In this document: positions 14,671 through 62,083 of the stretch, in pieces | Layout of the letters: every line of letters begins with the position of its first letter | Numbering within the stretch: the first letter of the stretch is position 1 | Origin: an uncultured Bifidobacteriaceae bacterium | Lineage (GTDB): Bacteria > Verrucomicrobiota > Verrucomicrobiia > Limisphaerales > JADLHS01 | Length of the DNA: 64,000 bases | Assembly: GCA_964458575.1 (NCBI GenBank) | Contig: CAYWMD010000009.1 | Span: 54,647-118,646, forward strand | Reading direction: 5' to 3' | Made by a program: the position numbers and the translations under genes | The notes under the pieces: generated by a model | Told to the model about the DNA's origin: nothing | The model's input: only the letters and a program-made list of their open reading frames with translations | The model's database searches: none

Positions 14671-14715
14671 ACGCGACCGAAATCCGACCTTTTGCCATTG
14701 GGCCGCCCTTCGACG

Positions 14716-14743
14716 TTGGATGTTGGATGTTGGATGTTGGATG
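14716..14743. repeat. Heptamer microsatellite (TTGGATG)x4 at the 5-prime end of the second LamG paralogue
   Basis: The sequence is cgacg-ttggatg-ttggatg-ttggatg-ttggatg-tttgcc. It belongs to the same word family (aacatcc/aacattc on the other strand) seen at ~42215-42240 and ~46240-46278. Confidence 0.85.
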
Positions 14744-17164
14744 TTTGCCATCATGGGCCTGCTGCTCTCGGCGGCCATCGCCGCAAACGCCCGCGCGGAC
14801 ACCGTCGCCCTCTGGCTGTTTGACGAGCCGGAGGGCCTCTATCCCAGTTCGAACTTGAACGACGCGAGCGGTCACAATTTGTTCCTCGCTTTTGGCCGCG
14901 GCGCGCGCATCGTCGAAGGCCATTTTGGGCGCGCGCTTGAACCGGCTGAACCGGCGTTGTTGAAACTCTCGGACGTGTCGTTGAACCCCGAGTTCGGTTT
15001 GCTGCCGGTCGGAAAACCCGCCGGCCGCAAAACCGAACCGATGACCTGGATGAACGCGCATTTCTGCGTGCTCATGACCAGGGGCGAAACGGCGTTGCGG
15101 AAGCCGCCGTTCGCCAATGCCACCGACACCAAACTCAATCTCGGGAACTTTGATTGGACCGTGGAATTCTGGTTCTGCGCAACGGAATCAGGCAAAGGCG
15201 AGGGCGTCGTTTTCGAAATTGGCGAAGGGCCGCGCGACGAAAACGAGCACGTTACGCGGCTTTCATTGAACGCGGATCGCCGGGGTTTTACGCTGTTCAA
15301 CCAACCGAGCGGCGCAAGGTTGACGATTCCTTCCGATGCCGCGTCGTTGTCGAAAGGTTGGCATCATCTGGCGTTCGTGTACGCGGCCAACGAACAGCAG
15401 TTGCGTCACTATGTGGACGGCGCGCTTCAGCCACCGCCCGCCAAAGCAGCGCTTAAGGCATTGCCGCACGGGGAGGAAGCCTATTTCAGCATTGGCCGCG
15501 ACGGTTTGTGGAATCGGCCGCTCCCCGGACGCCTGGATGAACTCCGCTTCTCGGATCACCAGGTTTACACCGCCAACTTCCAACCGCCGGGAAGTTTTTC
15601 TGTGACCTACGGCAAGGGGTTGCCAAAGTTGGCGCTCAAGGCCGGCCCGCCGTTGCTCTTCGGGACGAACGACGACAAGACCAAGCCGGTGGAACTTGGC
15701 TCGCGCAAATACGTCTTCATAGACGACGCGCTGGTCGCGGAAATGAAGGACATCACGTTCAAGCCGCAACCGCCGCAGAAAGCCGAGCCGGTGCTGGATC
15801 ACATTCGCGGCCATCTCTCGTTGGTCGAGGACGAACAGAAGTTGGTGCGGCTCTACTATCGCGAAGAGGGCGATTATCTCGCGGTGATGACCTCGCGGGA
15901 TGGAATTCACTGGGAGAAACCGGACCTGGGTCGCGGCGAATTCCAGGGCCTGCGCAACGTCGTTGTCCGTTACCCGGTCGCGCTGGGCAACGTGTTCATT
16001 GACCCGAATGCGCCGCCGGAGAGCCGGTGGAAATATTTCAGCGGCATCCGCAAGCAGGCGATGTTCATCTTCACGTCGCCGGACGGATGGGAGTTCAAGC
16101 CATTTGAAACCGCTGCTTTGCCGTTTTCGGCTGGGTCGCAGTCGGTCATTTATTACGATGATCAACGCCAACTCTACGTCGGACACCATCGTTCCGACTA
16201 TGCGCGAATGCCGGGCGGCAAGACGCAGCGGAGATTTGTGCGATCCGAAACCAAAGACGTGCTGGGCGTCTGGCCGTGGGAACGCATCCCACCCGGGCGC
16301 ACAGCGGAAATAGCGCGGGCACACGGCCTCCGGCCGGACAAACTCGATCCGTGGTTTTTGGACAACGGCCCGCTAATGCCGTCCGGCCCGGGCATTGAAT
16401 TGCCAACGGTGTTCGGGCCAGATGAGAAGCTTGATCCTGAAGGCACAGACATTTACACGACCAAGGTCGTGAAGTATCCGTGGGCACCGGATACCTATCT
16501 CGCCTTTCCCGCGGTGTATTTTCATTACGACGCCGACGGTCCGCCCGAGCGGTTGGAGTTGGGCGACGAACGACGTGGCCGCGGCTCGGGCGTGACCGAA
16601 GTGCAACTTGCCACGAGTCGCGATGGACTCACATGGAAGCGTTATCCGCGTCCGGCCTACGTGCCTATTGGCAGCTTTGGCAGCAACGACGTCCACATGT
16701 ATTTCCTCACGCACGGCATGATTCGCCGAGGCAACCAAGTCTGGCAATACGTCGGCGGCCACGACGGCAACGGCGTCGCGTATCATTCCGCCTGGGGCAA
16801 GAAAGGTCCTTGGCCGCTCATTCGCCTGGTGCAACGACTGGATGGCTTCGTCGCGGCGGAAGCCGCCTACACCGGAGGCTCTCTCACAACGCACCCGCTC
16901 AAATTCACCGGCAACCGGCTCAAGCTGAACATTGACACCGGCGCGGTCGGTTACGCACAGGTTGGTTTCCTCGATGAAAACGGCAAACCCATCCCCGGCT
17001 TTTCCGTGGATGAGTGCATTTACCTCAACGGCGATTTCATTGACACACCGGGGGAGTGGATGAAGCGCGGAACCGACGTGTCCTCCCTCCAAGGCCGGAC
17101 CGTGCAGGTCGTTTTGCGCATGAGGGGAACAAAACTCTACGCCCTGCAGTTCAGCAACCAGTAG
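14741..17164 (+). CDS. Secreted LamG-domain protein with a hydrolase-like beta-propeller/beta-sandwich module; tandem paralogue of 12244..14670
   Basis: The ATG at 14741 gives MFAIMGLLLSAAIAANARA. An in-frame ATG at 14720 or the TTG at 14657 are also possible starts. It is collinear with the upstream paralogue along its whole length through shared blocks DTVALWLFDEPEGLYPSS, WTVEFWF, WHHLAFVY, GRLDELRFSDHQVY, YPWAPDTYLAFP and RLDGFVAAEAAYTGG. Confidence 0.72.
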   Translation: MFAIMGLLLSAAIAANARADTVALWLFDEPEGLYPSSNLNDASGHNLFLAFGRGARIVEGHFGRALEPAEPALLKLSDVSLNPEFGLLPVGKPAGRKTEPMTWMNAHFCVLMTRGETALRKPPFANATDTKLNLGNFDWTVEFWFCATESGKGEGVVFEIGEGPRDENEHVTRLSLNADRRGFTLFNQPSGARLTIPSDAASLSKGWHHLAFVYAANEQQLRHYVDGALQPPPAKAALKALPHGEEAYFSIGRDGLWNRPLPGRLDELRFSDHQVYTANFQPPGSFSVTYGKGLPKLALKAGPPLLFGTNDDKTKPVELGSRKYVFIDDALVAEMKDITFKPQPPQKAEPVLDHIRGHLSLVEDEQKLVRLYYREEGDYLAVMTSRDGIHWEKPDLGRGEFQGLRNVVVRYPVALGNVFIDPNAPPESRWKYFSGIRKQAMFIFTSPDGWEFKPFETAALPFSAGSQSVIYYDDQRQLYVGHHRSDYARMPGGKTQRRFVRSETKDVLGVWPWERIPPGRTAEIARAHGLRPDKLDPWFLDNGPLMPSGPGIELPTVFGPDEKLDPEGTDIYTTKVVKYPWAPDTYLAFPAVYFHYDADGPPERLELGDERRGRGSGVTEVQLATSRDGLTWKRYPRPAYVPIGSFGSNDVHMYFLTHGMIRRGNQVWQYVGGHDGNGVAYHSAWGKKGPWPLIRLVQRLDGFVAAEAAYTGGSLTTHPLKFTGNRLKLNIDTGAVGYAQVGFLDENGKPIPGFSVDECIYLNGDFIDTPGEWMKRGTDVSSLQGRTVQVVLRMRGTKLYALQFSNQ

Positions 17165-39739: not shown

Positions 39740-40585
39740 TCACGCCGGCAGGAGATTCAGCAAGTGGGTCTTGACGTATTTCCCAGCCGCTTGAGGGTCG
39801 TAGGTGATGTCGGTGCGGAGCAGCGGCTGCATGTCCGAACAGAATCCGCGGTCCTTGAGGTGGCCTTCGAGAATTCCGATAAACTCCGCCCGACCGGCTT
39901 TTGTGCCTTCTTGCTTCAAGTAGTGCTCGAAGGACGCGATGATTGCTGCCGGGTCAACGGGCGTTGGTGATTTGGTCAGTGCCCAATACAAATCGAACAA
40001 ATCACGACCCCGCTTCCGCTGGAACATGGCGCGCATCTTTGTTCCCAGCATTTCGTGGATGTCGAAGCCTTTAACGTGGGTTTGGACTGCCTTGTCGCGA
40101 AATGGAAAGCTGAATGGCATCTCAACAACCGCCCGATGCGGCTTGCGTTCGGTCACGTTCGCTTCGACGACAATTTCCAGCGTCCGGTTTGGCTCGATGA
40201 TTGAGCGTGCTGAGTAAGTCATGCGCAACACGCGTGACGGCTTGACGGTGTTTCGGATCGCCAATGCGAGCGTGTCCCAAACGGACGTCTTTGGCGCTCC
40301 CAGAACATCGGTCAGCACGCGACGGATTGCTCGGCGGATGTGGTCGGCAGGGCGAGTCCCGACCACGACTAAATCAATGTCCTCGCTGTAACGTACGGGT
40401 GGCGCAAGATGGACCTTGTGAAGGAGCGTGCCGCCGCGCATGGCGATTTGGGAACTCAGGAATTTGTCGTCGAACAGCGCAACCATCGCGCGGCACAGCA
40501 GGAGGTCCTGCTCCACCTGATACTGCGCCGTCCACGGCACAACGGCTTGGTGCGCCAGAATATCTTGGCGGGTGATCGGCGTCAT
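39740..40585 (-). CDS. abiEii: AbiEii/AbiGii-family nucleotidyltransferase toxin (type IV toxin-antitoxin, abortive infection)
   Basis: 281 aa. The N-terminal block is QVEQDLLLCRAMVALF...MRGGTLLHKV...RYSEDIDLVV, which is the GG...SxDIDL nucleotidyltransferase motif of DUF1814/AbiEii. It has an ATGA overlap with the upstream antitoxin gene. Confidence 0.9.
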   Translation of the reverse strand: MTPITRQDILAHQAVVPWTAQYQVEQDLLLCRAMVALFDDKFLSSQIAMRGGTLLHKVHLAPPVRYSEDIDLVVVGTRPADHIRRAIRRVLTDVLGAPKTSVWDTLALAIRNTVKPSRVLRMTYSARSIIEPNRTLEIVVEANVTERKPHRAVVEMPFSFPFRDKAVQTHVKGFDIHEMLGTKMRAMFQRKRGRDLFDLYWALTKSPTPVDPAAIIASFEHYLKQEGTKAGRAEFIGILEGHLKDRGFCSDMQPLLRTDITYDPQAAGKYVKTHLLNLLPA

Positions 40586-41406
40586 ACTTTCAGCTCACTG
40601 GAATTGTTGAGCACCTGCCAGCGTCTGATAAGCGGGAAGTTGTCGCGTTTGCCTTTGGCCGGGGCGAGCGTTACGGGCGTCAAGTTATCGGGCAACCAGT
40701 CGCGGACAACTTTTGACAGTGACTTGTTGCCACACGCTTCGATGACAAATCCCAACCGCTGTGCGACGGCGGGTTCGTTCTCCAAATCCAATACGCGCTT
40801 GAGCTCGCGGGCGCGCAAGAGCGGCAGAAGCGGGCGGATGGTTTCCGCCGCGCGCTCGATGCCGCCGATGCTGGTTGCGTATCGAATCAGGTCATACGCC
40901 GTTGCCTCGGGCGTGCTGATCCGAAGTGGTGCGACTGCGCCTTCAGGCTGTTGGGTGGGCGTTCGCTCAATCCCTCGCTTCACGAAGAATCGAAGCTGGG
41001 TTCTTCCAACCTTGATCGGTCTGAATGGTTTGTCGGTCATCACTTGGGTGACTTGGAGAGCCTGCGGATTTGAACCGTAGGAACTGGCCGCTGATTGAAG
41101 CGCCAGATAATAGGGACAACCAAGCCAGTCGAAGTAATCTTGAAGCCACCAGTTCGCCGGGGGCGCGCCCATGTTGCGGTGTTCCGGGCTGACTATTAAG
41201 TAGAACGGTTGCCGGGTAGAAATCCTGACGACTTTGCTGCGCAGTCGCGTTAATTGGCGCTTGGCAGCGAGTGCCGACAGTCCGGACGCCTTGCCCAAAT
41301 CAGACAAAGCAAGCGTAACGCGCCCCAATGCCAATCGAGCATCACAAAAAGCCTCCGCCGCACCGCTTTGGCGGGCTTTTGTAGCGGTTTTGGCCTTATT
41401 TTTCAT
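40582..41406 (-). CDS. abiEi: AbiEi-family antitoxin / transcriptional regulator (type IV TA)
   Basis: The ATG at 41406 gives MKNKAKTATKARQSG.... Its size (~274 aa), its position immediately upstream of abiEii with a 4-nt overlap, and its N-terminal wHTH-like region (LSDLGKASGLSALAAKRQLTRL) all fit AbiEi. The 75-codon upstream extension in the track ORF was rejected. Confidence 0.85.
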   Translation of the reverse strand: MKNKAKTATKARQSGAAEAFCDARLALGRVTLALSDLGKASGLSALAAKRQLTRLRSKVVRISTRQPFYLIVSPEHRNMGAPPANWWLQDYFDWLGCPYYLALQSAASSYGSNPQALQVTQVMTDKPFRPIKVGRTQLRFFVKRGIERTPTQQPEGAVAPLRISTPEATAYDLIRYATSIGGIERAAETIRPLLPLLRARELKRVLDLENEPAVAQRLGFVIEACGNKSLSKVVRDWLPDNLTPVTLAPAKGKRDNFPLIRRWQVLNNSSELKV

Positions 41407-41442
41407 TTGCACATCATACCGTCTGACGGTTCGTTGTGCAAA
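41406..41442. promoter_or_regulatory. Nested palindrome overlapping the abiEi start codon (candidate AbiEi operator)
   Basis: On the plus strand, TTTGCACA (41406-41413) and TGTGCAAA (41435-41442) are exact reverse complements. They flank an inner palindrome, ACCGTC-T-GACGGT (41418-41430). AbiEi proteins are known to autoregulate through inverted repeats in their promoter. Confidence 0.35.
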
Positions 41443-41630
41443 CGGAATAAAACCAGCAAAATGCCAAAACGGTCGGTGCGGCTGGACGGCGCGACAGGCG
41501 GAACGAACGCATAGTCGTTCCCGCTGGCGCGAACGGACCGTTGATGATCCCAACCGTCGCGGCGTGTGCGGGCGGTTGGCGGAGCGAAATGAGCGCGGCC
41601 AACAGCCCGCAGGGGCCAGCGGTTGCACCA

Positions 41631-43217
41631 CTAATTTGGGTCAACGATGGCCGCCTCCAATTCCGCGATGAATCGAGGCAACAACGCGCCTTGGGAAAAC
41701 TGGTGTGCCAGGGACGCATAACGCTCCGGCTCACCGCGCTGTTTGAGCGCGGCCATCCGTTGAATCTGGTCCCGGCAGCGGTCCACGTCCCCGTGTGGCA
41801 CGCAGGCAGTGACCGGCGAATCGAGCGCATCAAGCAACTCCGAGAGATGGCTGGGTTTGGGGCCGAGGTAGAGGACCGGCGCGCCGACGCTCAACACATT
41901 GTAGATCTTGCAGGGGTGAACGACGCCGACGAACGGATTCCCCATCACCACGACGTGCAGATCCGCCGCCGAGAGGGAGGCGCTGAGTTCGTTCAGCGGT
42001 TGGTAGGGGAGGCAGAGGAGGTTGGAAGATGGAAGATGGGAGATAGCAGGTGTGGGTTGAGAGTTGAGGGTTGAGGGTTGAGAGATTTCTGATTGTGGCG
42101 ACACCTCACCCTGGCGCGCTCCCATAGCCCTCACCCCTGACCCCTCTCCCGTCCGACGGGCGAGGGGAACCGGGGGGCGGAGAGGGGAATCCGCAGGTGG
42201 AAGGTCGGGGGAACATTCAACATTCAACATCGAACATCCATGGCCCTCACCCCTGACCCCTCTCCCGTCCGACGGGCGAGGGGAACCGGGAGGCGGAGAG
42301 GCGGGATTGGGATTAGGATTAAGATTAGGATTAAGATTAAGATTAAGATTGGGGGTGGGAGACTCAGGAGTTGAAACGCTGACAGGCTGCGATGGTGAAA
42401 CAGGGCGTCCTGCCAAGGCCTGGATTTTTTTGAATTCGCTGCCGCCGCCGACGAACAGGAAGACGAATCTCGGGTCGTGGGCCAGTTCCCGGGCGACCGC
42501 CAACAAGGTGTCCAAAGGATGGCAGGGGCTGTGGTTGCCGGAATACATGATGACAAATTTATCATCGAGCTTATGCGCTTTGCGAAATCGCTCGCGTCCC
42601 GGGGCGTCGAATGTCACCGCGTCATCGTGCGCCCAGGGGGGAATCACCGCGATGCGCTCCGGCGCGATACCCTTGGCGAGGATGCGGTCCTGCATGAAGC
42701 GATCGAGCGCGATGATTTTGTCCGCCCGATGCAGGCTGTAACGTGACATCCAGTGGAGCAGGCGGGCCGGCAACGAGCCTTCGCGCAACCAACCGGCGGC
42801 AATGGCTTCGTCCGGGTTCAGGTCCATGACCCAATACACAAACCGGGCGCCGCGGAGGCGTGCGTATAGTGCGCCGATGAAAGAAATGAGCGGTGGCGAG
42901 GTGAGGGCGACGACAACATCAGGCTTGCGCGTGGTCAGCAGCCGGCAAACGCAGGACAGGATGAAGCTGGCGAAATCGGCGGCGCGGCGCCATTTGGCGG
43001 ATTTGCCGAAAGCGGTGGTGCTGATCCGGTGAATGTGGATGCCGCGCCAGTTCTCGTGCGCCGGGAAAACGCGCTCGGGATTGTCGTAGGCGCGGCGGCT
43101 TGCAATGACGGTGACCTCATGGCCGCGCTCGACCAAGCCTAGCGCGAGATCGCTCAGGTGTTGTCCCGTGGATACAACGTCGGGCCAAAAAGCCTGGTTA
43201 AGGAGGAGGAATTTCAC
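41631..43217 (-). CDS. Glycosyltransferase family 4 (WbuB-like) with a ~130-codon repeat-derived in-frame insertion
   Basis: The GTG at 43217 gives (M)KFLLLNQAFWPDVVSTGQHLSDLALGLVERGHEVTVI, a typical GT4 N-terminus. The C-domain is FVGGGSEFKKIQALA ... NLLCLPYQPLNELSASLSAADLHVV. The track ORF start at 43355 reads through repeat words (FRVFRVFRG) and was rejected. Confidence 0.8.
   Translation of the reverse strand: MKFLLLNQAFWPDVVSTGQHLSDLALGLVERGHEVTVIASRRAYDNPERVFPAHENWRGIHIHRISTTAFGKSAKWRRAADFASFILSCVCRLLTTRKPDVVVALTSPPLISFIGALYARLRGARFVYWVMDLNPDEAIAAGWLREGSLPARLLHWMSRYSLHRADKIIALDRFMQDRILAKGIAPERIAVIPPWAHDDAVTFDAPGRERFRKAHKLDDKFVIMYSGNHSPCHPLDTLLAVARELAHDPRFVFLFVGGGSEFKKIQALAGRPVSPSQPVSVSTPESPTPNLNLNLNPNLNPNPNPASPPPGSPRPSDGRGVRGEGHGCSMLNVECSPDLPPADSPLRPPVPLARRTGEGSGVRAMGARQGEVSPQSEISQPSTLNSQPTPAISHLPSSNLLCLPYQPLNELSASLSAADLHVVVMGNPFVGVVHPCKIYNVLSVGAPVLYLGPKPSHLSELLDALDSPVTACVPHGDVDRCRDQIQRMAALKQRGEPERYASLAHQFSQGALLPRFIAELEAAIVDPN
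42021..42410. repeat. Repeat-word block embedded in frame in the GT4 gene
   Basis: It encodes ...TPNLNLNLNPNLNPNPNP..PPGSPRPSDGRGVRGEGHGCSMLNVECS..SPLRPPVPLARRTGEGSGVRAMG..STLNSQPT.. from four word types: (i) gattaag/gattagg hexamer runs (~42305-42350); (ii) two ~55-nt copies of ccctcacccctgacccctctcccgtccgacgggcgaggggaaccgg (~42120-42188 and ~42237-42293), read in two different frames; (iii) aacattcaacattcaacatcgaacatcc (~42213-42240); (iv) ggttgagagttgagggttgagggttgag (~42051-42085). Confidence 0.75.
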
Positions 43218-43740
43218 GGTCGCTTCGGCAGATAAAAGCAGAAATGGGGAAAGCGGAAAACAGAAATGTGAGACACGGATTGCACGGATTGGAACGGAGC
43301 AGAGATCCAGGGTTAAACCACGAAAGACACGAAAGACACGAAACAAGTCGAACACGGATTACGATTCAGATTAAGATTAGGATTAAGATGAAGATTAAGA
43401 GTAGAAGGATGGAGGGGAAGGGCTGAGAGGGGGAAAGGGGGAAAGACGAAGGCGGAGGACGGAGGGCGGACCATCTGAGGACGGAACTGATTCACCACGA
43501 AACACACGAAATACACGAATACGAAAAAGGAGTAAGCGGAGGCAACGGAGCGAAGCCAAAAACCTAAAATGCTGCCCAGTGAAGTAGCGGGCCCAGAGGA
43601 ATACCGAAACGATTCCACGGGCCAAATGCACTGCACGGGCCAAGGAGCGCGTAAAGCGGTGAGCGAAGGTGAAAAGTGATGACGCAAAGTTCATCGGAGA
43701 TGGCAAAAGATGACAAAAGATGACAAAACGTGACTGGAAT
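43218..43740. repeat. Intergenic mosaic of short repeat words (block A)
   Basis: Successive runs are: cacgaaaga x3 (~43319-43346), gattaag/gattagg (~43358-43405), gggaaagggg, ggcggaccatctgaggacgg, cacgaaacacacgaaatacacgaatacgaaa, a ~100-nt gccaaaa...gctgcccagtgaagtagc...cacgggccaaggagc unit, and gatgacaaaa x3 (~43700-43727). Confidence 0.8.
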
Positions 43741-43792
43741 TAAATTTTTTGCGCTTTAGTGGTCTGTTGATCGGGTGCGGAAAAGGAAGAAG

Positions 43793-43913
43793 CTTTACCT
43801 TTTCTTTACCGATTTTCGCTTTCCGCGCCGGTTTCGTTTGGCGACGTGCTGCGGCCTGGAATGCCGCGCTCCTAGAGTGGAAAACTTTACCTTTTCTTTA
43901 CCTTTTGTTTACC
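43793..43913. repeat. Five CTTTACC (GGTAAAG) units in two clusters with exact 11-bp phasing
   Basis: Units lie at 43793-99 and 43804-10 (cluster 1) and at 43885-91, 43896-902 and 43907-13 (cluster 2). Each cluster is followed by a related ga(t/a)(t/a)tcgctttyc motif. The positions were checked against the codon register of track ORF 43749..43955. Confidence 0.8.
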
Positions 43914-44049
43914 GAAATCGCTTTTCGCCTGGTTGTGTCCCATGTTTCCCCCTGAAGCCGTTCGCCGACCGGCGCTCCAAGCCGCTCGGGCGCGAAAGGA
44001 GCGGTCTATTTCAAAGAACAAGTTAACGACGCACACCCGGCTACAGGCA

Positions 44050-44790
44050 TGAGGTCAGGATTAAGATTAGGAGTAAGATTCTGGTTCAAAGTAACATTTA
44101 TGATTCAGACCTTTTGCCCTGGCTTGCCGCTGGCATACAACGCCGCGAACGATGCGGACGTTAAATCAGCGAACACGGAGAGTCCAGAAAAAAGTGGAAA
44201 TTTTTTTGCCACGGATGGACACGGATCAAAAGTCAAAAAGCTGAAACACTGAAATGCTGACAGGCTGACAGGCTGAAACCGGAGACCGGAGACCTGACCA
44301 AAAACTGAAAAGCTGAAAAACTGAAAAGCTGACATGCTGACCCGCCTTCGTAAGACTTCGGCGCGGCAAGAAGGCTGAGACACGAATTGCACGAATTGGC
44401 ACGAAGCCAAAATCAAAATGCTGCCCGGTGAAATATGCGAGGCCATTTCACGGGCCGAGGAGCACGGAGCAAAAACGTTCTTAACCACGGATGGACACGA
44501 ATGGACACGGATCAAAAGTCAAAAAGCTGAAAAACTGAAAAGCTGACAGGCTGACAGGCTGAAACCGGATACCGGAAACCGAAAATGTAAAATCTGAAAC
44601 GCTAAAAAGCTGACATGCTGAAAGGCGGAGAAGCTGAAACGGGCGAATTGCGGGAAGCGGGGAGCGGAGGACAAATCCTGAGAAAGAGAAAAGGGGAAAA
44701 GGGGAAAAGGGGCGGAGGAAAGACGGGGGACTTGAGGCGGGAGATGGGGTGGGGTGAATTTGTGCTTTCATTTTGCAGTCAAATGCACTA
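44050..44790. repeat. Intergenic mosaic of short repeat words (block B)
   Basis: It contains gattaagattagg, two copies of ccacggatggacacg..atcaaaagtcaaaaagctgaaa (~44208 and ~44480), gctgaaa/gctgaca/ctgaaaag 7-8-nt runs, ccggagac x2, cacgaattgcacgaattggcacgaag, the gctgcccggtgaaat...atttcacgggcc hairpin-like unit, and gggaaaaggggaaaagggg. Confidence 0.8.
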
Positions 44791-44800
44791 TGGTCCGCGT

Positions 44801-45040
44801 ATGAAAACCGTCTGCCTTACCATCCGGGACTGTCCGGCAGAAGTGCACCGGGCCCTGAGCGAGCGGGCCGCAGCCCACAAGCGCAGCCTGAACTCGGAAA
44901 CCATTGTCGTTTTAGAAAACGCCCTGGAGGCTCGGCGCATGAGCGAAGCGGAGTTGCGCCGGGCCATCCGTTCCATTCCCACAAAGGCGCGGTTGTCGCT
45001 GGCCGAAATGCGAGCCGCGATCCGGGAGGGACGGAAATGA
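44801..45040 (+). CDS. vapB: Ribbon-helix-helix (Arc/FitA-like) antitoxin of a VapBC-type TA pair
   Basis: The ATG at 44801 gives MKTVCLTIRDCPAEVHRALSERAAAHKRSLNSETIVVLENAL, an RHH pattern. The protein is 79 aa. It has an ATGA overlap with the downstream PIN gene. Confidence 0.75.
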   Translation: MKTVCLTIRDCPAEVHRALSERAAAHKRSLNSETIVVLENALEARRMSEAELRRAIRSIPTKARLSLAEMRAAIREGRK

Positions 45041-45435
45041 TTGTGGTGGACGCCACGGTCGTAGCCGGATTTCTCTTTTCCGCGGACGCATTCCACGTCC
45101 AGGCCGAGGCGGTGCGTGAGAAGGATGCAGACTGGCATTGCCCGGAACTGGTATTCTCCGAGGTGCGCAGCGTGGGGATGAAACATCACCAGAAAGGCGA
45201 TACGCTGGATGCGACAATCGCGCGGTGCAATCTTACGGCGGCAACGGTTTCGGTTTATCGGATGCACTCGCACAGCGTGTTGCACGCGGCCGACGAGGGT
45301 TCGATTTGGGTTTATGACGCTGAATATGTGGCGCTCGCTCGTCAGTTGCAGGTGAAACTCGTTACCACGGACGAAAGGATACTGGAACAATTTCCGGCCG
45401 TCGCGGTATCCCCGGCTGATTTTCTGAAAAGCTGA
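45037..45435 (+). CDS. vapC: PIN-domain ribonuclease toxin (VapC family)
   Basis: 132 aa. The sequence MIVVDATVVAGFL...ELVFSEVRSV...VYDAEYVALARQLQVKLVTTDERI shows the acidic residues in the usual PIN positions (D5, E, D, D). Confidence 0.82.
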   Translation: MIVVDATVVAGFLFSADAFHVQAEAVREKDADWHCPELVFSEVRSVGMKHHQKGDTLDATIARCNLTAATVSVYRMHSHSVLHAADEGSIWVYDAEYVALARQLQVKLVTTDERILEQFPAVAVSPADFLKS

Positions 45436-46340
45436 TCGCGTAAAGCGGCGTAAAGCCGCACCACGGCCAAGGGCGGAGGACAGACCACGGATCACGGACC
45501 ACGAAAGACACGAAAGACACGAAACACGGAGAGGGACGACGAGGTCATGGGATTAAGATTAGGAGTAGGATTAAGATGAAGATTAAGAGTAGAAGGAGGA
45601 AGGGGAAGAGGTGAAAAGGGGAAAAGGGGAAAAGGGGCGGAGGAAAGACGAGGGCGGACCATCTGAGGACGGAGGGCTTTCCTTAAATGCTGAAACGCTG
45701 AAACCTGAAACGCTGAAAAGCTGCTCGCGTAAAAGCGCGTTGCGGCACGCGATTCTGAAGCTGAAAAAGGACCACGGACCACGGAGCATGGGCAAAAGCT
45801 GAAGAACCGAAACCTGAAACCTGTTGTCGGAGCGAGGAGCAGCGAGCGGGGAGCAGCGAGCGGGGAGCGGGGAGCGCGTGACCGCCAAAATCTGAAATCT
45901 GAAAAGCTGACATGCCGAAATCGGATTAAGATTACGATTAAGAGTAAGACGGAGGACGGTGACCTGTTGTCGGAGCGGGGAGCGGGAAAGGAAGAGGGGA
46001 AAAGGGGAAAGGGGGAAGAGGGGCGGAGGAAAGACGATGGCGGAGGACGGAGGACGGACCATCTGAGGACGGAACTGATTCACCACGAAACACACGAAAT
46101 ACACGAATACGAAACAGGAGTAAGCGGAGGCAACGGAGCGAAGCCAAAAAGCTGAAAGGCTGCCCAGTGAAGTAGCTGGCCGTGAGGTTCCACGGGCTGA
46201 ACGCACTTCACGGGCCAAGGAGGGCGGACCAGGCGGGAATCAATATCGAACATTCAACACCCAACATCGAACATCCATTCAAGGGTCAAGGCTGAAACCT
46301 GAAACCTGAAACCTGGAGGGAGGAGGCGCGCACGGAGTGA
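45436..46340. repeat. Intergenic mosaic of short repeat words (block C)
   Basis: It repeats the block A word order twice: a partial copy at ~45497-45680 and a full copy at ~45916-46225. The full copy includes a 156-nt stretch (46024-46179) nearly identical to 43436-43591. It also has gctgaaac runs, ggagcggggagc runs, aacattcaacacccaacatcgaacatcc (~46240-46278) and gctgaaacctgaaacctgaaacctgg. Confidence 0.8.
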
Positions 46341-46346
46341 CGCGCC

Positions 46347-46472
46347 CTACCTGTGGTTCAGCGTGATGAGGGAGGGGAGTTGTTTGCGGAGAGCCGCTTC
46401 GGCCTGGGATTCGTCGCCGACTCCGCTGATGGCGATTTCGAGGATGCGCAAGCCGTAATTCCGGGTGCCGCG
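46347..46472 (-). pseudogene. Orphan fragment homologous to the C-terminal tail of the exosortase-EpsI fusion (fragment 2 of 2)
   Basis: The minus-strand frame ending at the TAG (46349-46347) reads ...GTRNYGLRILEIAISGVGDESQAEAALRKQLPSLITLNHR*. This aligns with AGRRNMGQRLLEIGVWGSENYDTVEAALQRQLEKLIVVEQ at the end of the exosortase ORF. No start codon is present. Confidence 0.5.
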
Positions 46473-46480
46473 TGATACTC

Positions 46481-46675
46481 CTACTGCACCACAATCAGTT
46501 TATCCAACTGGGCGCGCAGGGCGCCCTCGGCTTGGGCCGGATTGTCAATGCCCCACACGGCGAGTTCCAAGGAACGTTGGCCAAGATTGCGCCGGCCAGC
46601 CCGGACGGCAGTGAAGCGGCTGGCGTAGGTCAGCGACTCTTTGTCAAATGCCGGGTCCGGTCGGTGATGCGGAGG
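46481..46675 (-). pseudogene. Orphan fragment homologous to the C-terminal tail of the exosortase-EpsI fusion (fragment 1 of 2)
   Basis: The minus-strand frame lies between the TGA (46678-46676) and the TAG (46483-46481). It reads PPHHRPDPAFDKESLTYASRFTAVRAGRRNLGQRSLELAVWGIDNPAQAEGALRAQLDKLIVVQ*. It contains no Met, starts 5 nt after the exosortase stop, and is in another frame. Confidence 0.6.
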
Positions 46676-46682
46676 TCATCCC

Positions 46683-48434
46683 TTACCGATTGGCGCCATT
46701 CGACTGCTCCACCACAATCAGTTTTTCCAACTGGCGCTGGAGGGCGGCTTCGACGGTATCGTAGTTTTCAGATCCCCAGACGCCGATTTCCAACAAACGC
46801 TGCCCCATGTTCCGACGTCCTGCCACCACATTGGCCAAACGGCCACGGACAGTAAGGCCTTCGGCCAAATAGGGTTGATTGTCGGGATAATCCCGAATCG
46901 CGCCATGGAAAACAAACAAAGGCGTACCGGCGTCGCTGAAGAGATACCGAGTGAAAGAGAATGAAAGACCGTTAACATGGAATTCCTTGGGTCCGAGCGT
47001 GGAACGCAACTTCTTGCCCGCAGCGGTCAGGCAGGACGTAGGTGGGTGGTTGTTGAGCATCTCCAATGTTATCTTTCCCGGCACCCAGCGGAAGTACAGC
47101 ATTTGCCATCGCGTGCCATCCGCATCTTGCCAGGCGAGATTCATGCCCTCATCGTGGCGCAGCCAAAACCGCGTGGTGTCAGTAATGGGTAGTTCCTTGA
47201 TCGGAGAACCGTTGGCTGGCTTCGAAACCGTCCAAGCGGGGGCGGGCAAAAGGTGCTTCTCGTGGATGCGATACCAGAACTCTACCCCGACGACGACGAA
47301 TGAAATCCAAACGATTAAGGCCAAGGGCAAAGTGCAGAGTGCAAAGCGCGGAGCGCGGTCCTCCCGCACGAAGCCTTCGGGTCGGAGAGGTGCAGGGACG
47401 GGAAGCGCGGAGCGGGAAGCGCGGAGCACGAAGGATAGCAGCCAAAGCCCGCTGAAGCAGCCGACGAGGATGGTGATGCCGGCGGGGTCATGCCATTTGG
47501 CGATAGCGGGCACGCCGTCGCGCGCAGCGACCCAAGTCAATAGGCTGGTGCGCCCGAAGTTAAAAATGAACGAAAGGGCGAAACCGGCAAGACAGAGGGA
47601 AAAACGGCGGAGGATAGAGAGCCGGTAGAATTCGCCGAAGAAGAGGGAGAGCATGAGGGTGGCCTGAAAGGAGCGGATGCCGCTGCAGGCGTCGTCAATG
47701 CCGACGAGGCCGGTGATGACTTCGATGACGTTGCCGTGCTGGACGGCGAGGATGCCGAGAGCGTTTAGAAGTTCGATGGTGACGGCGATGTTGGCCCGGG
47801 TGAGTACCTGGATGAGGGGATACTCGATGAAGGTGGGCCAAGGAACGGCCACTAAAAAGAATAGAAGAGGAAAGCAGAAAGTAGAAATGCTGAGACCGGA
47901 GACCGGAGACCGGAGACCAGAGGTTAGAGGACGGAGGTCAGAGGACAGAGGGCGTTCTGAAATGCTGACACGCTGAAAGGCTGACCCGCCTTCGTAACAC
48001 TTCGGCGTGGCGAGAAAGCTGAAATGAAGGATGAGCAGCGTGAGGGTGATGACGATGAGGGCGAGGGCCCAACTGATCAGTCGCCAATCAGGGTTGGCTT
48101 CCTGGATGAGGCGGGTGGGTAGGTAGAGGAAAGCGCAGATGACAAATGCTGAAATGCTGAAAAGCTGAAAGCTGAAAGCTGAAAACTGAGACCGGAGACC
48201 TGAAACGTGAAACCTGAAACGTGAAGCCGGAGGGGGATTAAGATTAAGATTAGGAGTAGAACGGAGACGGCGAAAGAGGAGGTAGATGCAGAGGAAGGGG
48301 ACGGCCCAGCCGTAGGCGTACTGGGGGTTTAACGTCCATTCTAAACGCAATTGATTGATCAAAGTGAACCAGAGCCAGGCCAAAGGCAGAAGCCAAAGGC
48401 CGAGTCTTAACCACGGATGGGGACGCTTGGACAC
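46683..48434 (-). CDS. Exosortase (EpsH/Xrt family) fused to a C-terminal EpsI-like domain, with two repeat-derived in-frame blocks
   Basis: 583-aa polytopic membrane protein with an N-terminal WxxLxxxW...NPQYAYGWAVP block. The catalytic-Cys block is VGIDDACSGIRSFQATLMLSLFF. After the last TM helix there is a ~200-aa soluble domain (WTVSKPANGSPIKELP...YFRWVPGK...) of EpsI type. The start is uncertain: the GTG at 48434 lies inside a repeat word. Confidence 0.87.
   Translation of the reverse strand: MSKRPHPWLRLGLWLLPLAWLWFTLINQLRLEWTLNPQYAYGWAVPFLCIYLLFRRLRSTPNLNLNPPPASRFRFHVSGLRSQFSAFSFQLFSISAFVICAFLYLPTRLIQEANPDWRLISWALALIVITLTLLILHFSFLATPKCYEGGSAFQRVSISERPLSSDLRPLTSGLRSPVSGLSISTFCFPLLFFLVAVPWPTFIEYPLIQVLTRANIAVTIELLNALGILAVQHGNVIEVITGLVGIDDACSGIRSFQATLMLSLFFGEFYRLSILRRFSLCLAGFALSFIFNFGRTSLLTWVAARDGVPAIAKWHDPAGITILVGCFSGLWLLSFVLRASRSALPVPAPLRPEGFVREDRAPRFALCTLPLALIVWISFVVVGVEFWYRIHEKHLLPAPAWTVSKPANGSPIKELPITDTTRFWLRHDEGMNLAWQDADGTRWQMLYFRWVPGKITLEMLNNHPPTSCLTAAGKKLRSTLGPKEFHVNGLSFSFTRYLFSDAGTPLFVFHGAIRDYPDNQPYLAEGLTVRGRLANVVAGRRNMGQRLLEIGVWGSENYDTVEAALQRQLEKLIVVEQSNGANR
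47883..48011. repeat. Repeat-word block 2 inside the exosortase ORF
   Basis: It encodes ATPKCYEGGSAFQRVSISERPLSSDLRPLTSGLRSPVSGLSIS. On the plus strand it contains ccggagac runs, gctgacacgctgaaaggctgac, and the unit gctgacccgccttcgtaacacttcggcgtggcgagaaagctga, which recurs at ~44333-44378. Confidence 0.75.
48144..48257. repeat. Repeat-word block 1 inside the exosortase ORF
   Basis: It encodes TPNLNLNPPPASRFRFHVSGLRSQFSAFSFQLFSISAF. On the minus strand it reads aatctt x2, cacgtttcaggttt x2 (14 nt), ggtctcc, cagcttt x3 (7 nt) and cagcattt x2 (8 nt). Confidence 0.78.
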
Positions 48435-48505
48435 GGATCAAAAGCTAAGAAGCTGAAACACTGAAACGCTGAAACTCGAAACTAGAAACCAGAAACTTGA
48501 GAGTA
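48435..48505. repeat. Repeat-word run immediately upstream of the exosortase (block D)
   Basis: The sequence is acggatcaaaagctaagaagctgaaacactgaaacgctgaaactcgaaactagaaaccagaaac. The preceding ttaaccacggatgg..gacacggatc word covers the first ~10 exosortase codons. Confidence 0.7.
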
Positions 48506-48608
48506 ATTACCCGTACCAAGTGCATGAACCGCGAACGACGCGAAACACGCAAAAAAGATGGCGGGCGGCAAATAGATGCAAAAGTCCGATCTTCACGCTC
48601 TCCGCTCG

Positions 48609-49172
48609 TCAGTGAGCACTTTGCGCTTCTATCACCCGTTGTTTGATGAGGACTGCCGGATTGCCACGATAAATACCGAATCGTACCAAGCTTTTCGTCG
48701 CTACGGAGCCGGCGGTGAGGACGGCGTGGCTGCCGATGGTTACGCCAGGACCGACGAAGGCGCACGCTCCGACCCACGCCCCCTGCTCGACGACAATGGG
48801 CTCAGTGATCAGGTCGAAGGCAGGAGACTTATAGTTGTGATTCCCGGTACATAGAAAAGCCCGCTGCGAAATACAAACGTGGCTTTCAATCGTGATGGGA
48901 GCGAGATTCAGCAGCCAACATTCTTCGCCGAGCCAGACATGGTCGCCCAAGGTCAGCTTCCACGGAAATGTGATTTTGACGTTTGGCTTGATGACCACGC
49001 CCCTTCCGACGCGCCCTCCAAACAGACGGAGTACGGCGCATTTCAGCCGGGAAAAGCTAAAGGGACAAAGTTGAAAGAGGAAAAGGCGGACAATCAGCCA
49101 CAAGGCTTCTCGCACGACGCCAGCGCCCCGGTCAAAATCCGGATTAGAAAACTCGGCCAGATTTACTTTCAT
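48609..49172 (-). CDS. wcaF: Hexapeptide-repeat O-acetyltransferase, WcaF-like (colanic-acid-type)
   Basis: 187 aa. It is collinear with E. coli WcaF as I recall it: LRLFGGRVGRGVVIKPNVKITFPWKLTLGDHVWLGEE...CISQRAFLCTGNHNY...GAWVGACAFVGPGVTIG...YRGNPAV. Confidence 0.82.
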   Translation of the reverse strand: MKVNLAEFSNPDFDRGAGVVREALWLIVRLFLFQLCPFSFSRLKCAVLRLFGGRVGRGVVIKPNVKITFPWKLTLGDHVWLGEECWLLNLAPITIESHVCISQRAFLCTGNHNYKSPAFDLITEPIVVEQGAWVGACAFVGPGVTIGSHAVLTAGSVATKSLVRFGIYRGNPAVLIKQRVIEAQSAH

Positions 49173-59470: not shown

Positions 59471-60761
59471 GACTCAGCGAATGCATGATCTGCTGTAATT
59501 TCGCGAAAGAATGGTCTTCCATGTACTGTTCGAACCTTGCCGTCTTTGCCAACCGCGCCCGATACTCGGGTGAACTCATCTCCCTCAAGGCCGCCAAGCA
59601 AGCTTCCGGCGTTTGTTCCGGCAGCACGGAGCCGACCCCGTATTCGCGGACTCTTTTCGCCATGAGTTCCCCTTCGCTCACGAGCAATGGTTTTCGGAAG
59701 GCTACCGCCTTGCTGATGACATTGCTGGAATGGAGATGGTCACGATACACACAAAAAATCATGTCACAGCTCGAGACTATCGCGTTGAAGTCACCTTCCG
59801 AAGCAATTCGTTGGGGAGAGAAAACGACATTGCTTCGCCGATAGATGCCCTCGTTCAAAAAGGCCTGATGGCGTGCAGAAAACGAACCCGCCTGACAATT
59901 TCCTGCAAGCACAAAAAGGAACCCTTCAGTGTCATGGTTTTGGATCACATCCAGCAAGACATCCGCGCATTTTCGCCGGCTCAAATCCCCAAGCAATCCA
60001 ACCACCACCCGCCCCTCGCGTTTCGCGGCAATCCTGGGCACTAACTCGGGAGGCGGATTGGCAATTTGCAACGAAGTCGTCTCGGGATAAGCCACCACCT
60101 GCTTGCCCGTTTTGATCCGCACCCAATCCTCGTATCGCTCGTCTTGCATGGCTATCTGCTGGCACCGGCTTCTCCTCAACACCTGGTTCTTCTGCCAGAG
60201 ATAAAAACACCGTATCCCCGCTGCCACCCCGGTGAGCAAGCGATCTAAAATGGAATGCAACATTTTCGTAAACCAGCCGCATTTGGCTGAATTCCCCATT
60301 AACCGCGCCAACTCCTGTCTGGCCCGGCTCAATGGCCACCGCCGTTCGTGAGTGAGCAGCAACCCACTAAACGGCCAGGGCAGCAACCGCCGGATGCCGA
60401 GCCAGAGCAGCGGCAACTGCCGGACCCCGATGAACAGGCTATCGAGACTGGTATGAAAAACAAACAACGGTTCCCCGGGGGTCGCTTTACGAATGGAGTC
60501 CACTCGGGCCCGCAACTCGCGCAAATCCGCCGCCAGATCAGTAAACTTTTTAAAGCCGGTTCGGGCGGCGCGGTTGGCATGACTCACAACTGAAACTTTT
60601 TCCAGCAGCCCGGGCGGCCCGCCGACGCGTTCCAAAGGATTGGCTTCACCGGGACAGATCACGTAAATTTTGCGGCTGAAGGAGTCGCAGGCGCGAATTA
60701 ATTCCGCACAATACGACGGATGATGGCCGTCCCAGGAAACCACGATCAGGACGGTGATCAC
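59427..60761 (-). CDS. Hypothetical protein, possibly a GT-B-fold glycosyltransferase
   Basis: 444 aa. The GTG start overlaps the upstream stop (GTGA). The C-terminal half (VVVGLLGDLSRRK...FLFVLAGN...SSCDMIFCVYRD...SNVISKAVAFRKPLLVSEG) looks like a GT-B C-terminal Rossmann domain. No firm family assignment. Confidence 0.45.
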   Translation of the reverse strand: MITVLIVVSWDGHHPSYCAELIRACDSFSRKIYVICPGEANPLERVGGPPGLLEKVSVVSHANRAARTGFKKFTDLAADLRELRARVDSIRKATPGEPLFVFHTSLDSLFIGVRQLPLLWLGIRRLLPWPFSGLLLTHERRWPLSRARQELARLMGNSAKCGWFTKMLHSILDRLLTGVAAGIRCFYLWQKNQVLRRSRCQQIAMQDERYEDWVRIKTGKQVVAYPETTSLQIANPPPELVPRIAAKREGRVVVGLLGDLSRRKCADVLLDVIQNHDTEGFLFVLAGNCQAGSFSARHQAFLNEGIYRRSNVVFSPQRIASEGDFNAIVSSCDMIFCVYRDHLHSSNVISKAVAFRKPLLVSEGELMAKRVREYGVGSVLPEQTPEACLAALREMSSPEYRARLAKTARFEQYMEDHSFAKLQQIMHSLSRGPVIPSNNESSQR

Positions 60762-62083
60762 CGGACTGGTTGAGGGTTGAGGGTTGAGCGTTGCCGGAGG
60801 GCACTCTCGTAGAAATCCAGGTAGTTCTGCGTCATGTGCTGAATGCCGAATTCCCGGTGCGCCCGTTCGTACGCTCGCCGGCCTGTTTCCGAACGGAGTT
60901 GATTATCATTGATCAAGCGTTGGATGCGTTCGGCCATTTGGTTGGAGTCGCCCGGTGGGAAAAGAAACCCATTTTGACCATCGGTCACCTGGTCGGGAAT
61001 TCCTCCCACGTCGCTGGCCACCACCGGCAACCCGCAGGCCATCGCCTCGGTAATGCTCAAGCCCCAAACCTCCGCACGCGAAGCGTGAACATAAATGTCG
61101 GCGGCTTGATAATGTTTCGCCACGACACGCCGGTCGCTTAAGTGCGGCACGAACTGCAACTTCGCTTGCCCCACTTCCTCCGGCGGCCCGTCTTCTCCCA
61201 GGGCAACGAAGAACAACGGTTTCCCCGGGTTCTGGGCGCTCAAGATTTCCAGTGCCTTACGCATCGTGGGATAGTCTTTTGCAATGCTGTTGCGGATTCC
61301 CTTGGCGGCAAACAGCAGGATGGTTGCGTCGCGCGGAAAGCCCAGGTCTTGACGTGCTTCTGCTCGATCCCCGGGCTGGAAAACTGAAAGGTCAATGCCA
61401 TGGTGGATGATCCGCGTGGAGGCGACAGCCGCAGGGAGCATCGAGTTGTTCAACTTCTCCATTAGCCAGCGGCAGGGCGCGGCGATGTGCAGGCGGCTTT
61501 GGGAGTAGATCTTTTGCTTACGACGCCAGTTGTAAGCAGTGGCATCGCGCCGAATAGATGGGTAGATGGTCAGGTCGGGACACGTCCCACAACCGGTTCG
61601 CCAGCGTTCGCAGTCGAAGGAATGTGAACAATGGCCGCTCAACAGCCAGGCATCATGCAAGGTCACGACGGTGGGAATTTGCCGACTCAACCACGGCAGC
61701 ACCCGCAAATCAAAGTAGCTACCGTGCAGATTGTGCAGGTGGAGAACATCGGGCTTGTCCGGCGCGTGCTCCAACAAATGGTGACTCCCGGGAAAATCAA
61801 AATCCTCGTGTCCCAGCAAAACTCGCGCTGTGCTCCACGGTCGCCCGCACGCCCGAGCGAGCCGGTTGCCAGCCAACGGGCGGACGACTCGGTTGCATAG
61901 CCTCGCCCACTGATGTCGGTGCGCTTCGTTACGGATGGCGAGCAGTCGCTCGTCGTCAAGCGTTTTCTCCCGAACGGCCAACCAGGCGGAATGTCCCGCT
62001 GTGTTGCAACCTTCCATCAGGTCGAAGGCCAACTGTGCCGCACCGCCCCCGTGAGCGGTTGTGTTTACGTGCAGAATACGCAT
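60758..62083 (-). CDS. Glycosyltransferase family 4 with a Cys-rich insert
   Basis: 441 aa. The N-terminus is MRILHVNTTAHGGGAAQ. The insert is CSHSFDCERWRTGCGTCPD. The C-domain is VHASRAEVWGLSITEAMACGLPVVASDVGGIPD. The last codons (STLNPQP) are encoded by the ctcaaccctcaaccc repeat word. Confidence 0.85.
   Translation of the reverse strand: MRILHVNTTAHGGGAAQLAFDLMEGCNTAGHSAWLAVREKTLDDERLLAIRNEAHRHQWARLCNRVVRPLAGNRLARACGRPWSTARVLLGHEDFDFPGSHHLLEHAPDKPDVLHLHNLHGSYFDLRVLPWLSRQIPTVVTLHDAWLLSGHCSHSFDCERWRTGCGTCPDLTIYPSIRRDATAYNWRRKQKIYSQSRLHIAAPCRWLMEKLNNSMLPAAVASTRIIHHGIDLSVFQPGDRAEARQDLGFPRDATILLFAAKGIRNSIAKDYPTMRKALEILSAQNPGKPLFFVALGEDGPPEEVGQAKLQFVPHLSDRRVVAKHYQAADIYVHASRAEVWGLSITEAMACGLPVVASDVGGIPDQVTDGQNGFLFPPGDSNQMAERIQRLINDNQLRSETGRRAYERAHREFGIQHMTQNYLDFYESALRQRSTLNPQPVR

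Follow-up and report, generated by a model that had tools for sequence, protein, structure and literature searches.

An in-frame mosaic of short repeats forms a predicted disordered loop in a verrucomicrobial WcaI-like family-4 glycosyltransferase

Introduction

Several systems are known in which repeat DNA lies within or close to genes. Rickettsia palindromic elements (RPEs; Ogata et al. 2000, 2002) are, as summarised in PMC10969869, found in frame in conserved, unrelated housekeeping genes and translated at sites compatible with the protein fold. The tandem repeats of Borg elements are genome-specific, occur between genes and within open reading frames (ORFs) without ever breaking the frame, evolve fast and independently, and yield disordered regions (PMC9879509). 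The TAACTGA repeats of Beggiatoaceae and the cyanobacterial short tandemly repeated repetitive (STRR) sequences are head-to-tail repeats of mostly 7 nucleotides (nt), which are genome-specific, mostly intergenic and often situated just upstream of start codons (PMC4679880). According to the literature summarised in the same source, non-triplet units are mostly excluded from coding regions, and G-rich heptamer repeats are described for Xanthomonas and Nostoc (PMC4692102). Here we analyze a 64,000-nt stretch of the verrucomicrobial contig CAYWMD010000009.1 (hereafter the window, always at its full length), in which the gene of a WcaI-like family-4 glycosyltransferase (GT4) carries 127 in-frame codons made of repeat words.

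We found no published account of repeats of this kind from Verrucomicrobiota in the literature searched. The insert is probably a translated and tolerated disordered loop, derived from the short tandem repeats of the lineage and a hairpin element, turned over by slippage and recombination, and kept by selection for an open frame.

Results

The insert and its host protein

A sequence-only reading of this DNA had proposed an insert without glycosyltransferase-like sequence at 42021–42410. As measured here it spans 42024–42404, only a few bases off, and none of its 127 codons falls within a Pfam match. The insert is bounded by FVGGGSEFKKIQALAGR (residues 255–271) and NLLCLPYQP (residues 399–407), with a net gain of 123 residues over the 13-residue connector that we take below as ancestral. 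All residues that are invariant among 65 aligned homologues are kept in the window protein, including those next to the insert (G257–S260, L403–Y405 and H434–K437). The nearest species representatives are metagenome-assembled genomes of Verrucomicrobiota/Limisphaerales, with proteins 72–73% identical.

The N-terminal half is readily recognized by Pfam, with Glyco_trans_4_4 matching residues 18–195 (E = 5.9e-22; 79.1 bits, cut-off 29.7) and Glyco_transf_4 scoring 65.6 bits (cut-off 28.5). Glycos_transf_1 matches residues 208–269 only, equivalent to profile positions 2–66, or the first third of the profile, where the match ends. It scores 17.5 bits on the full protein and 21.5 bits on the insert-deleted one, both below the cut-off of 26.4, and the match grows longer once the insert is cut out. 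The insert breaks profile matches and thereby leaves Glycos_transf_1 under its cut-off, which is of consequence for annotation; a precomputed PF00534 match is present in many insert-free orthologues. The insert-deleted protein (residues 1–395) aligns end-to-end with positions 1–406 of the 411 of the NCBIfam WcaI model (NF007640), but its 153.5 bits fall short of the cut-off of 276; for TIGR04007, it reaches 92.9 bits with a cut-off of 800. Thus, the enzyme is WcaI-like rather than a WcaI equivalog.

The homologues begin with MKFLLLNQ, which aligns with the GTG at 43217. The database gene call (P0001; P and L numbers designate homologous proteins and their loci) is 574 residues long and starts 46 codons upstream of this conserved start (43218–43355), an extension that translates CACGAAAGA nonamers as FRVFRVFRG. 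Repeat-word N-terminal extensions of at least 8 residues are present in 11 other homologues, and of at least 5 residues in 15 of 120; they look like annotation artefacts of open repeat DNA, which lengthens ORF calls, as in this early database start. No promoter- or terminator-like sites were found in 41600–43800.

A recurrent insertion site in orthologues

Comparison with the best 120 homologues (E of 1e-159 or better) confines internal length variation to one site. These proteins are 375–511 residues long, except for the exact database entry. Relative to the 400-residue baseline, 73 of the 120 have at least five extra residues (5–123) after baseline residue 273. Insertions of five or more residues are absent from every other internal site in this set, in which only the N- and C-termini otherwise vary in length. 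The distance from FVGGGSE to CLPYQP is 28–30 residues in the 400-residue forms and 31–153 residues in about two-thirds of the homologues. At the DNA level, we compared 154 loci from Verrucomicrobiota and Acidobacteriota that have both halves of the gene. The connector from SEF to N-x-x-C is 39 nt (13 residues) in 123 of them and 27–42 nt in another 15, and the ancestral connector was probably 13 residues long. The expectation that these two blocks are normally separated by a short segment is therefore borne out, and the contrary possibility raised beforehand, that orthologues free of the repeat words hold an equally long structured segment, fails, since such orthologues have the 13-residue connector. 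By hand count, the insert is present in 5 of about 35 species representatives of Verrucomicrobiota, versus 0 of about 45 others, mostly Acidobacteriota.

Inserts from different lineages have unrelated sequences. Their peptides are read-throughs of repeat words (STLNSQPST, FSFQLSAFSFS, TSNIQHP x5, SRITHHA, RSEVGGQ, KQKAESR and PSDGRGVGGE), and arrays with a period of 5–10 nt, mostly 7, are found in 18 of the 20 inserts examined. In the KRVQRWAE lineage, a clean insertion of 105 nt separates WAEA from GKRP at one locus (L115), whereas eight relatives retain the 13-residue connector (KRVQRWAEAGKRA). This clean insertion against uninterrupted relatives shows a gain separate from that in the RKI-type lineage containing the window, and inserts were thus gained independently in at least two lineages.

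Many inserts (L124, L003, L081, L086 and L115) open with purine-rich words (GGAAAGC, AGAAATC, GCGCAGA) and close with pyrimidine-rich ones (CTCAACC, CCGACCT, TTTCAGC). The two halves are reverse complementary in L124, where (GGGACCAC)n is followed by (GTGGTCC)n, and partly complementary in L003, which gives the insert as a whole the potential to form a hairpin.

The reading frame is kept open

The gene frame is the only one of six that is open across the window insert, with 0, 2 and 10 stops in the sense frames and 5, 2 and 11 in the antisense frames. For a stretch of 381 nt, the chance of being stop-free in one particular frame is 0.028 from shuffles of the insert and 0.013 from the composition of the window. 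We rejected the proposal that stop-poor, pyrimidine-rich sense words leave the frame open by chance: the intergenic mosaic has, on the same strand, 6–16 stops per frame per 1383 nt versus 15.7 expected, and the 2 and 10 stops in the other sense frames of the insert argue likewise.

For the orthologues, loci were fetched by the N-terminal 262 residues only and the C-terminal half was then located in any frame. All 18 complete inserts (57–345 nt) are in frame and free of stops. They comprise 17 long connectors of 57–303 nt among the 154 loci, all multiples of three, and an additional 345-nt insert with about 27 copies of a CGAACGT-type heptamer (L082). One further insert (L009) is open for 341 nt to the end of its contig. 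If the frame were free, 18 of 18 would be expected with a probability of (1/3)^18, or about 3e-9. This result indicates that the orthologous inserts would be translated and their genes kept functional, and the multiple-of-three constraint argues against RNA splicing. The sequence-only reading had left undecided whether the frame is kept open by selection or by chance; the single open frame of six and the 18 in-frame inserts shift the balance towards selection on the frame. The window insert itself is known from a single contig.

Predicted structure

The AlphaFold2 model, run with a 65-sequence alignment, has a GT-B fold, i.e. two Rossmann-like domains facing a cleft (predicted template modelling score 0.77), with 333 residues at a predicted local distance difference test (pLDDT) score of at least 90. 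Foldseek comparison with the PDB retrieved MshA, BshA, sucrose-phosphate synthase, HepE, WaaG and PimA, with E down to 4e-19 and a target-normalised template modelling score up to 0.80. The predicted fold stands in for the sub-threshold Glycos_transf_1 profile in assigning the protein to the GT-B family-4 enzymes. In the model, the insert lies between helix 260–268 and strand 400–403, which form the Cα2 to Cβ3 connection of the C-terminal Rossmann domain. The flanks of the insert have pLDDT above 90, while residues 280–392 fall below 50 and have no secondary structure. The model thus depicts what had been envisaged, a disordered excursion from an intact GT-B fold.

In composition the insert fits disorder, with S, Q, N, P, T and E over-represented among its residues and W, Y, C and L under-represented. 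In Rossmann domains, the connection from helix to strand lies at the edge of the sheet opposite the nucleotide-sugar site. The loop should therefore not obstruct catalysis and, judging from this general topology, would be clear of the active site.

Modules of the insert

The insert is a mosaic of tandem arrays and a longer repeated element (Table 1). Arrays identified with Tandem Repeats Finder (TRF) have units of 6 and 7 nt with 81–100% matches and cover 38% of the insert; they belong with simple-sequence tandem repeats, which consist of head-to-tail units of 5–11 nt in genome-specific families. TRF recovered every repeat word named by the sequence-only reading (gattaag-type hexamers, the MLNVEC word and the STLNSQPT word). 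Within the MLNVEC and STLNSQPT modules, the TRF arrays span 42212–42240 and 42056–42084. That reading did not list the TGGAAGA x3.1 array, which abuts the resumed native sequence NLLCLPYQP. The CTCAACC/GGTTGAG word also ends the inserts of many orthologues. The 5′ part is 61% identical to the reference copy of repeat family D1, a weak assignment. Peptides read from the insert include SPRPSDGR, TGEGSGVR and GEVSPQSEISQPSTLNSQPTPAISHLPSSNLLCLPYQPLNELSASLSAADLHVVVMGNPFVGVVHPCK.

The two copies of the hairpin element form a direct repeat of 97% identity. Two copies had been noted in the sequence-only reading, but with a length of about 55 nt rather than the 64 nt measured. Their starts are 116 nt apart, which is 2 modulo 3, so that the copies are read in different frames, as had been claimed, and the overall frame is restored, with the gene frame stop-free throughout. 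The 64-nt unit folds as a hairpin with an 11-bp core stem (CCCCUCgCCCGU/ACGGGaGAGGGG). Against shuffled sequences, the z-scores are −0.4 to −2.1 for the 64-nt units and −1.56 for the complete insert, which is not significant. The composition of the insert alone folds well, and the hairpin structure is therefore without statistical demonstration.

Table 1. Features of the insert, its host gene and the adjoining repeat-rich region (positions in the window).
Feature	Position	Strand	Remarks
WcaI-like family-4 glycosyltransferase gene	41631–43217	-	528 residues; start GTG 43217
In-frame insert, 127 codons, residues 272–398	42024–42404	-	381 nt; reads PVSPSQ...HLPSS
5′ insert part VSPSQPVSVSTPES	42355–42398	-	Weakly like CTGAAANG octamer family
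Hexamer array GGATTA/AGATTA x7.8, sense CTTAAT/CCTAAT	42304–42350	-	TRF; encodes PNLNLNLNPNLNPNPNP
64-nt hairpin element, copy A	42238–42301	-	Read as PPGSPRPSDGRGVRGEGHG
Heptamer module GAACATTCAACATTCAACATCGAACATCCAT, AACATTC-type x4, sense GATGTTC/GAATGTT	42211–42241	-	TRF; encodes MLNVEC
64-nt hairpin element, copy B	42122–42185	-	Other frame; read as PPVPLARRTGEGSGVRAMG
Heptamer array GGTTGAG/GTTGAGA x4.1, sense CTCAACC	42054–42084	-	TRF; encodes QPSTLNSQPT
Heptamer array TGGAAGA x3.1, sense CATCTTC	42023–42044	-	TRF; encodes SHLPSS
Intergenic mosaic, tandem words of ~6–10 nt and longer composite repeats	43218–46682		TRF; families D1–D13
Exosortase gene	46683–48434	-	Pfam Exosortase_EpsH, residues 18–333 over only 246 profile positions
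Exosortase in-frame repeat-word stretch 1, residues 59–97	48144–48260		STPNLNLNPPP...FSFQLFSISAF
Exosortase in-frame repeat-word stretch 2, residues 151–186	47877–47984		SAFQRVSISERPLSSDLRPLTSGLRSPVSGLSISTF

Source and turnover of the insert DNA

Shared words were counted at k = 13 and 15 (k = 11 is uninformative, being dominated by chance matches). Thirty-eight 13-mers of the insert recur elsewhere in the window on the same strand and 0 on the opposite strand. The hexamer module has 10 copies, including those at 43347–43411, 44043–44083, 45541–45599, 45914–45954 and 48226–48266 (families D3/D8), the last of which lies within the exosortase ORF. The 31-nt irregular heptamer module is 94% identical to an intergenic sequence at 46248–46278 (family D15); such identity in an irregular module indicates copying of the module rather than independent slippage. 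The CTCAACC/GGTTGAG array recurs at 60768–60793. These matches support the 43–49 kb mosaic as the population that would have supplied the insert modules. The mosaic words (GATTAA, CACGAAAGA, AAAAGCTG, GGGGAAAA, GGAGACC and others) are all purine-rich on the + strand, where the GC skew is +0.09 to +0.24 and the AT skew +0.2 to +0.31. Composite repeats include D7 (163 nt, 94%, at 43437–43599 and 46025–46187), D10 (123 nt at 83%) and one of 85 nt at 94%. In three orthologous loci (L003, L013 and L067), the insert likewise shares 20–52 12-mers with flanking intergenic DNA, all on the same strand except three, which are all in L003. A protein search with the 127-residue insert against 5.8 billion proteins gave 51 word-sharing candidates, none with E ≤ 1e-3.

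A 36-nt core of the 64-nt element is present, with 89% identity, in the equivalent loop of L161 (P0040), where it carries a paired change in the stem (CCCGTC/GACGGG to CCCATC/GATGGG); the same loop holds another, distinct perfect hairpin. Module types are common to the inserts of the window, L161 and L162, namely an AACATC-type array, at least one hairpin element, and a CTCAACC array where the native sequence resumes. This is also their order in L161 and L162; the window insert instead has the AACATC-type array in inverted orientation, flanked by the two hairpin copies. These common module types could reflect common descent or a recurrent composite.

Closely related inserts differ by whole modules. 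TSNIQH[PS] is repeated five times in P0007 and about once in its relative P0009, with copy number changing in 21-nt steps. P0062 and P0077 have cores 96.7% identical and inserts of 56 and 30 residues that are only 41% alike, while the 35-residue insert of P0037, P0060, P0092 and P0094 is 97–100% identical at 89–95% core identity. These patterns indicate that change occurs mainly by gain and loss of modules, not by point substitution. Insert identity falls to about 0.3–0.45 once the cores are less than 85–90% identical.

Neighbouring genes and further arrays

The interrupted GT4 gene lies in an exosortase/polysaccharide cluster that contains at least four further genes of this family. Both repeat-word stretches of the exosortase (Table 1) use the same hexamer, octamer and heptamer families as the mosaic, of which further intergenic stretches lie at 48435–48608 and 49049–49085. 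The gene is flanked by two toxin–antitoxin pairs: an AbiEii + AbiEi pair is found directly downstream of the interrupted GT4 gene (39740–41631, - strand; E of 2e-28 and 2e-17), and a FitA-like ribbon-helix-helix antitoxin with a PIN-domain toxin was identified by Pfam within the upstream mosaic (44615–45435, + strand).

Arrays also adjoin other genes. In another GT4 gene of the window (60758–62083, - strand), the last residues, …RQRSTLNPQPVR*, are encoded by the GGTTGAG x3.7 array at 60768–60793. A tandem array overlaps the 3′ end of the GT4 ORF in several orthologous loci, and C-terminal tails of 5–29 residues are present in 35 of the 120 homologues. Arrays of up to 21 copies lie 4–100 nt upstream of the orthologous GT4 start and 20–40 nt past the stop (L011, L013, L014, L067, L071, L077, L085, L102, L108 and L158). 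Such gene-adjacent heptamer and octamer arrays are genome-specific and occur in both Verrucomicrobiota and Acidobacteriota, e.g. Pyrinomonadaceae; about half of all loci have at least one tandem array in a flank of 2.5–5.5 kb. Within the window, a perfect GTTGGAT x4.4 array (14715–14745) immediately precedes a probable ATG, in the context of a + strand gene, and the ORF that follows begins like a signal peptide (MGLLLSAAIAANARA). Since GTTGGAT is the AACATCC word (42212–42240) in reverse-complement orientation, the word has the same reading relative to local transcription in both places, which are two cases only.

Discussion

Origin of the insert

According to the explanation that we prefer, the insert would replace the end of helix Cα2 and the short turn into strand Cβ3, and its DNA would be a patchwork of 6- and 7-nt (perhaps 8-nt) tandem repeats and a small hairpin element. 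Modules from dispersed copies would enter the gene by illegitimate recombination or template switching, and would then expand, contract and reshuffle by slipped-strand mispairing. Only variants with a stop-free sequence and a total length divisible by three would survive. As the connector is the only internal site where repeat material persists, surviving inserts pile up there. It is plausible, in addition, that a first insertion seeds the substrate for more slippage and recombination.

Several observations weigh against this explanation. The sequence-only reading had assigned the mosaic to the same element population as that in the exosortase. This holds for the hexamer and heptamer modules, which recur, but not for the 64-nt element, for which no third copy was found in the window or in 162 fetched loci, and hence no dispersed family. 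The presence of an insert in 61% of the closest homologues fits a useful loop equally well, and so does the retention of an identical 35-residue insert at 89–95% core identity. Whether a locus bears an insert is not predicted by how dense the tandem arrays in its flanks are (median 11.2 per kb in insert-bearing versus 0 in insert-free loci, Mann-Whitney p = 0.15), and dense arrays also adjoin many insert-free orthologues, including those of Acidobacteriota. A permissive site alone gives no account of why one loop has been hit in several lineages. The Glycos_transf_1 matches in four other GT4 C-terminal domains of the window are uninterrupted. Together with the non-predictive flank density, these intact domains suggest that a permissive loop in a repeat-rich genome is necessary, but not obviously sufficient.

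A more active process can also be envisaged. A clade of soil Verrucomicrobiota might possess a lineage-specific process that generates or mobilises repeats and writes disordered segments, selected for function, at preferred sites. The GT4 connector, the two exosortase loops and the N- and C-termini of proteins may be candidate landing sites. We consider this doubtful; if true, the process would be a bacterial-chromosome counterpart of the amino-acid repeats of Borgs and of RPEs.

Alternative explanations

The strongest competitor to a tolerated loop is a disordered loop that is itself functional and positively selected, as a tether, a spacer, or an interaction or condensate segment in the exosortase-linked polysaccharide machinery, for which the repeats are mere raw material. 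Insertion at one site in 73 of 120 homologues, the independent gain in at least two lineages, the 35-residue insert kept identical across cores of 89–95% identity, a composition typical of disordered regions, the repeat-word segments of the neighbouring exosortase, and the selection for repeat-made disordered regions in Borg elements (PMC9879509) would all be expected of such a segment. However, inserts of different lineages share no sequence relationship and vary in length from 5 to 123 residues, and their identity drops to about 0.3–0.45 below 85–90% core identity. A connector of 13 residues suffices in most species representatives and in all Acidobacteriota orthologues, the same words fill non-coding DNA, and no Pfam motif is found in the insert. 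A function of this kind is unlikely, though its chance is large enough to be kept in view; the loop is most likely carried as a near-neutral passenger and not as a functional module. Repeats within a glycosyltransferase gene also call to mind a contingency locus, in which a gain or loss of one 7-nt unit shifts the frame and reversibly switches the enzyme off and on. Haemophilus, Neisseria and Campylobacter are the classic examples of surface-glycan transferases switched by repeats in this way. Work summarised in PMC4679880 regards heptamers as slippage-prone, and heptamer arrays of 3–4 copies lie within the window ORF, with up to about 27 copies in L082. Switching is nonetheless improbable, as all 18 complete inserts keep the frame (the sequences are consensus assemblies from different species rather than population data), the arrays are short and imperfect (81–100% matches), and much of the insert is non-tandem, with only 38% in TRF arrays.

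The remaining alternatives would make the loop unreal in the genome or in the mature enzyme. Repeats cause assembly errors, and the block, or its duplication at 116-nt spacing, might be such an artefact. The contigs of relatives do break within such inserts (e.g. L009), the two 64-nt copies are nearly identical, and the gene is on record from a single contig. An artefact would hardly be exactly in frame with only one of six frames open, and same-site inserts, some of similar size (345 nt in L082 and 118 residues in P0040), occur in independent assemblies from many samples; the contig is 156,648 nt long. We therefore regard misassembly as very improbable. Removal of the block as an intron or intein has in its favour the sole argument that a conserved domain is interrupted, and we attach almost no weight to it: Rfam has no match anywhere in the window, no Pfam intein or Hint match is found in the insert, the junction residues (R|P...S|N) are not intein-like, and lengths of 18–369 nt above the baseline are too short and too variable. 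In addition, the 18 inserts are all stop-free multiples of three, a constraint that RNA splicing would not impose.

Significance

If this explanation of a tolerated loop holds, the locus is a natural example of non-coding repeat DNA turned into protein sequence inside a conserved catalytic domain. Across dozens of independent assemblies, one connector accommodates insertions that range from 5 residues to more than 120, each time with different repeat words, and the evidence for selection on the frame is clear. The birth of new disordered regions in bacteria thereby becomes testable, as does the tolerance of the GT-B fold for loop expansion, which would be useful for protein engineering at this connector. 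The role of the abundant heptamer and octamer arrays in soil Verrucomicrobiota and Acidobacteriota is open to test as well.

Comparison with known systems

Like RPEs, the 64-nt units of the window can form hairpins, and their site is a surface connector. Each RPE is a discrete element of about 100–150 bp, dispersed in the genome and with a conserved encoded peptide, whereas the window insert is a mosaic with 38% tandem arrays. Its hairpin copies are read in different frames, its 64-nt unit has no dispersed family in the window and the 162 loci, and its host, unlike Rickettsia, is a free-living, soil-type verrucomicrobium. The resemblance to Borg repeats is that the window repeats occur both between genes and within ORFs, where they give a disordered segment with the frame kept. 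However, Borg units are perfect and, in ORFs, divisible by three (PMC9879509), while those of the window are 6 and 7 nt long, imperfect and mixed, and units of 8 nt are found in some orthologues. Here only the mosaic as a whole keeps the frame, the host DNA is a bacterial chromosome, and one loop of one enzyme family is hit repeatedly.

The arrays near the orthologous GT4 starts resemble the start-codon-proximal TAACTGA repeats of Beggiatoaceae. STRR arrays also occur within the cyanobacterial RNase P RNA gene, a functional gene that tolerates them. In contrast to the heptamer arrays of the literature, several arrays lie here inside the ORF of a conserved catalytic domain. Non-triplet repeats inside the ORF of a surface-polysaccharide glycosyltransferase are also a feature of phase-variable glycosyltransferase genes, which differ from the present case in that 0 of 18 loci are out of frame and the arrays are short, imperfect and embedded in a long non-repetitive mosaic. 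Thus, what is new with respect to the known systems is the mixture of non-triplet arrays with hairpin units, the frame kept over the whole mosaic, the bacterial chromosome as host, and the single recurrent connector.

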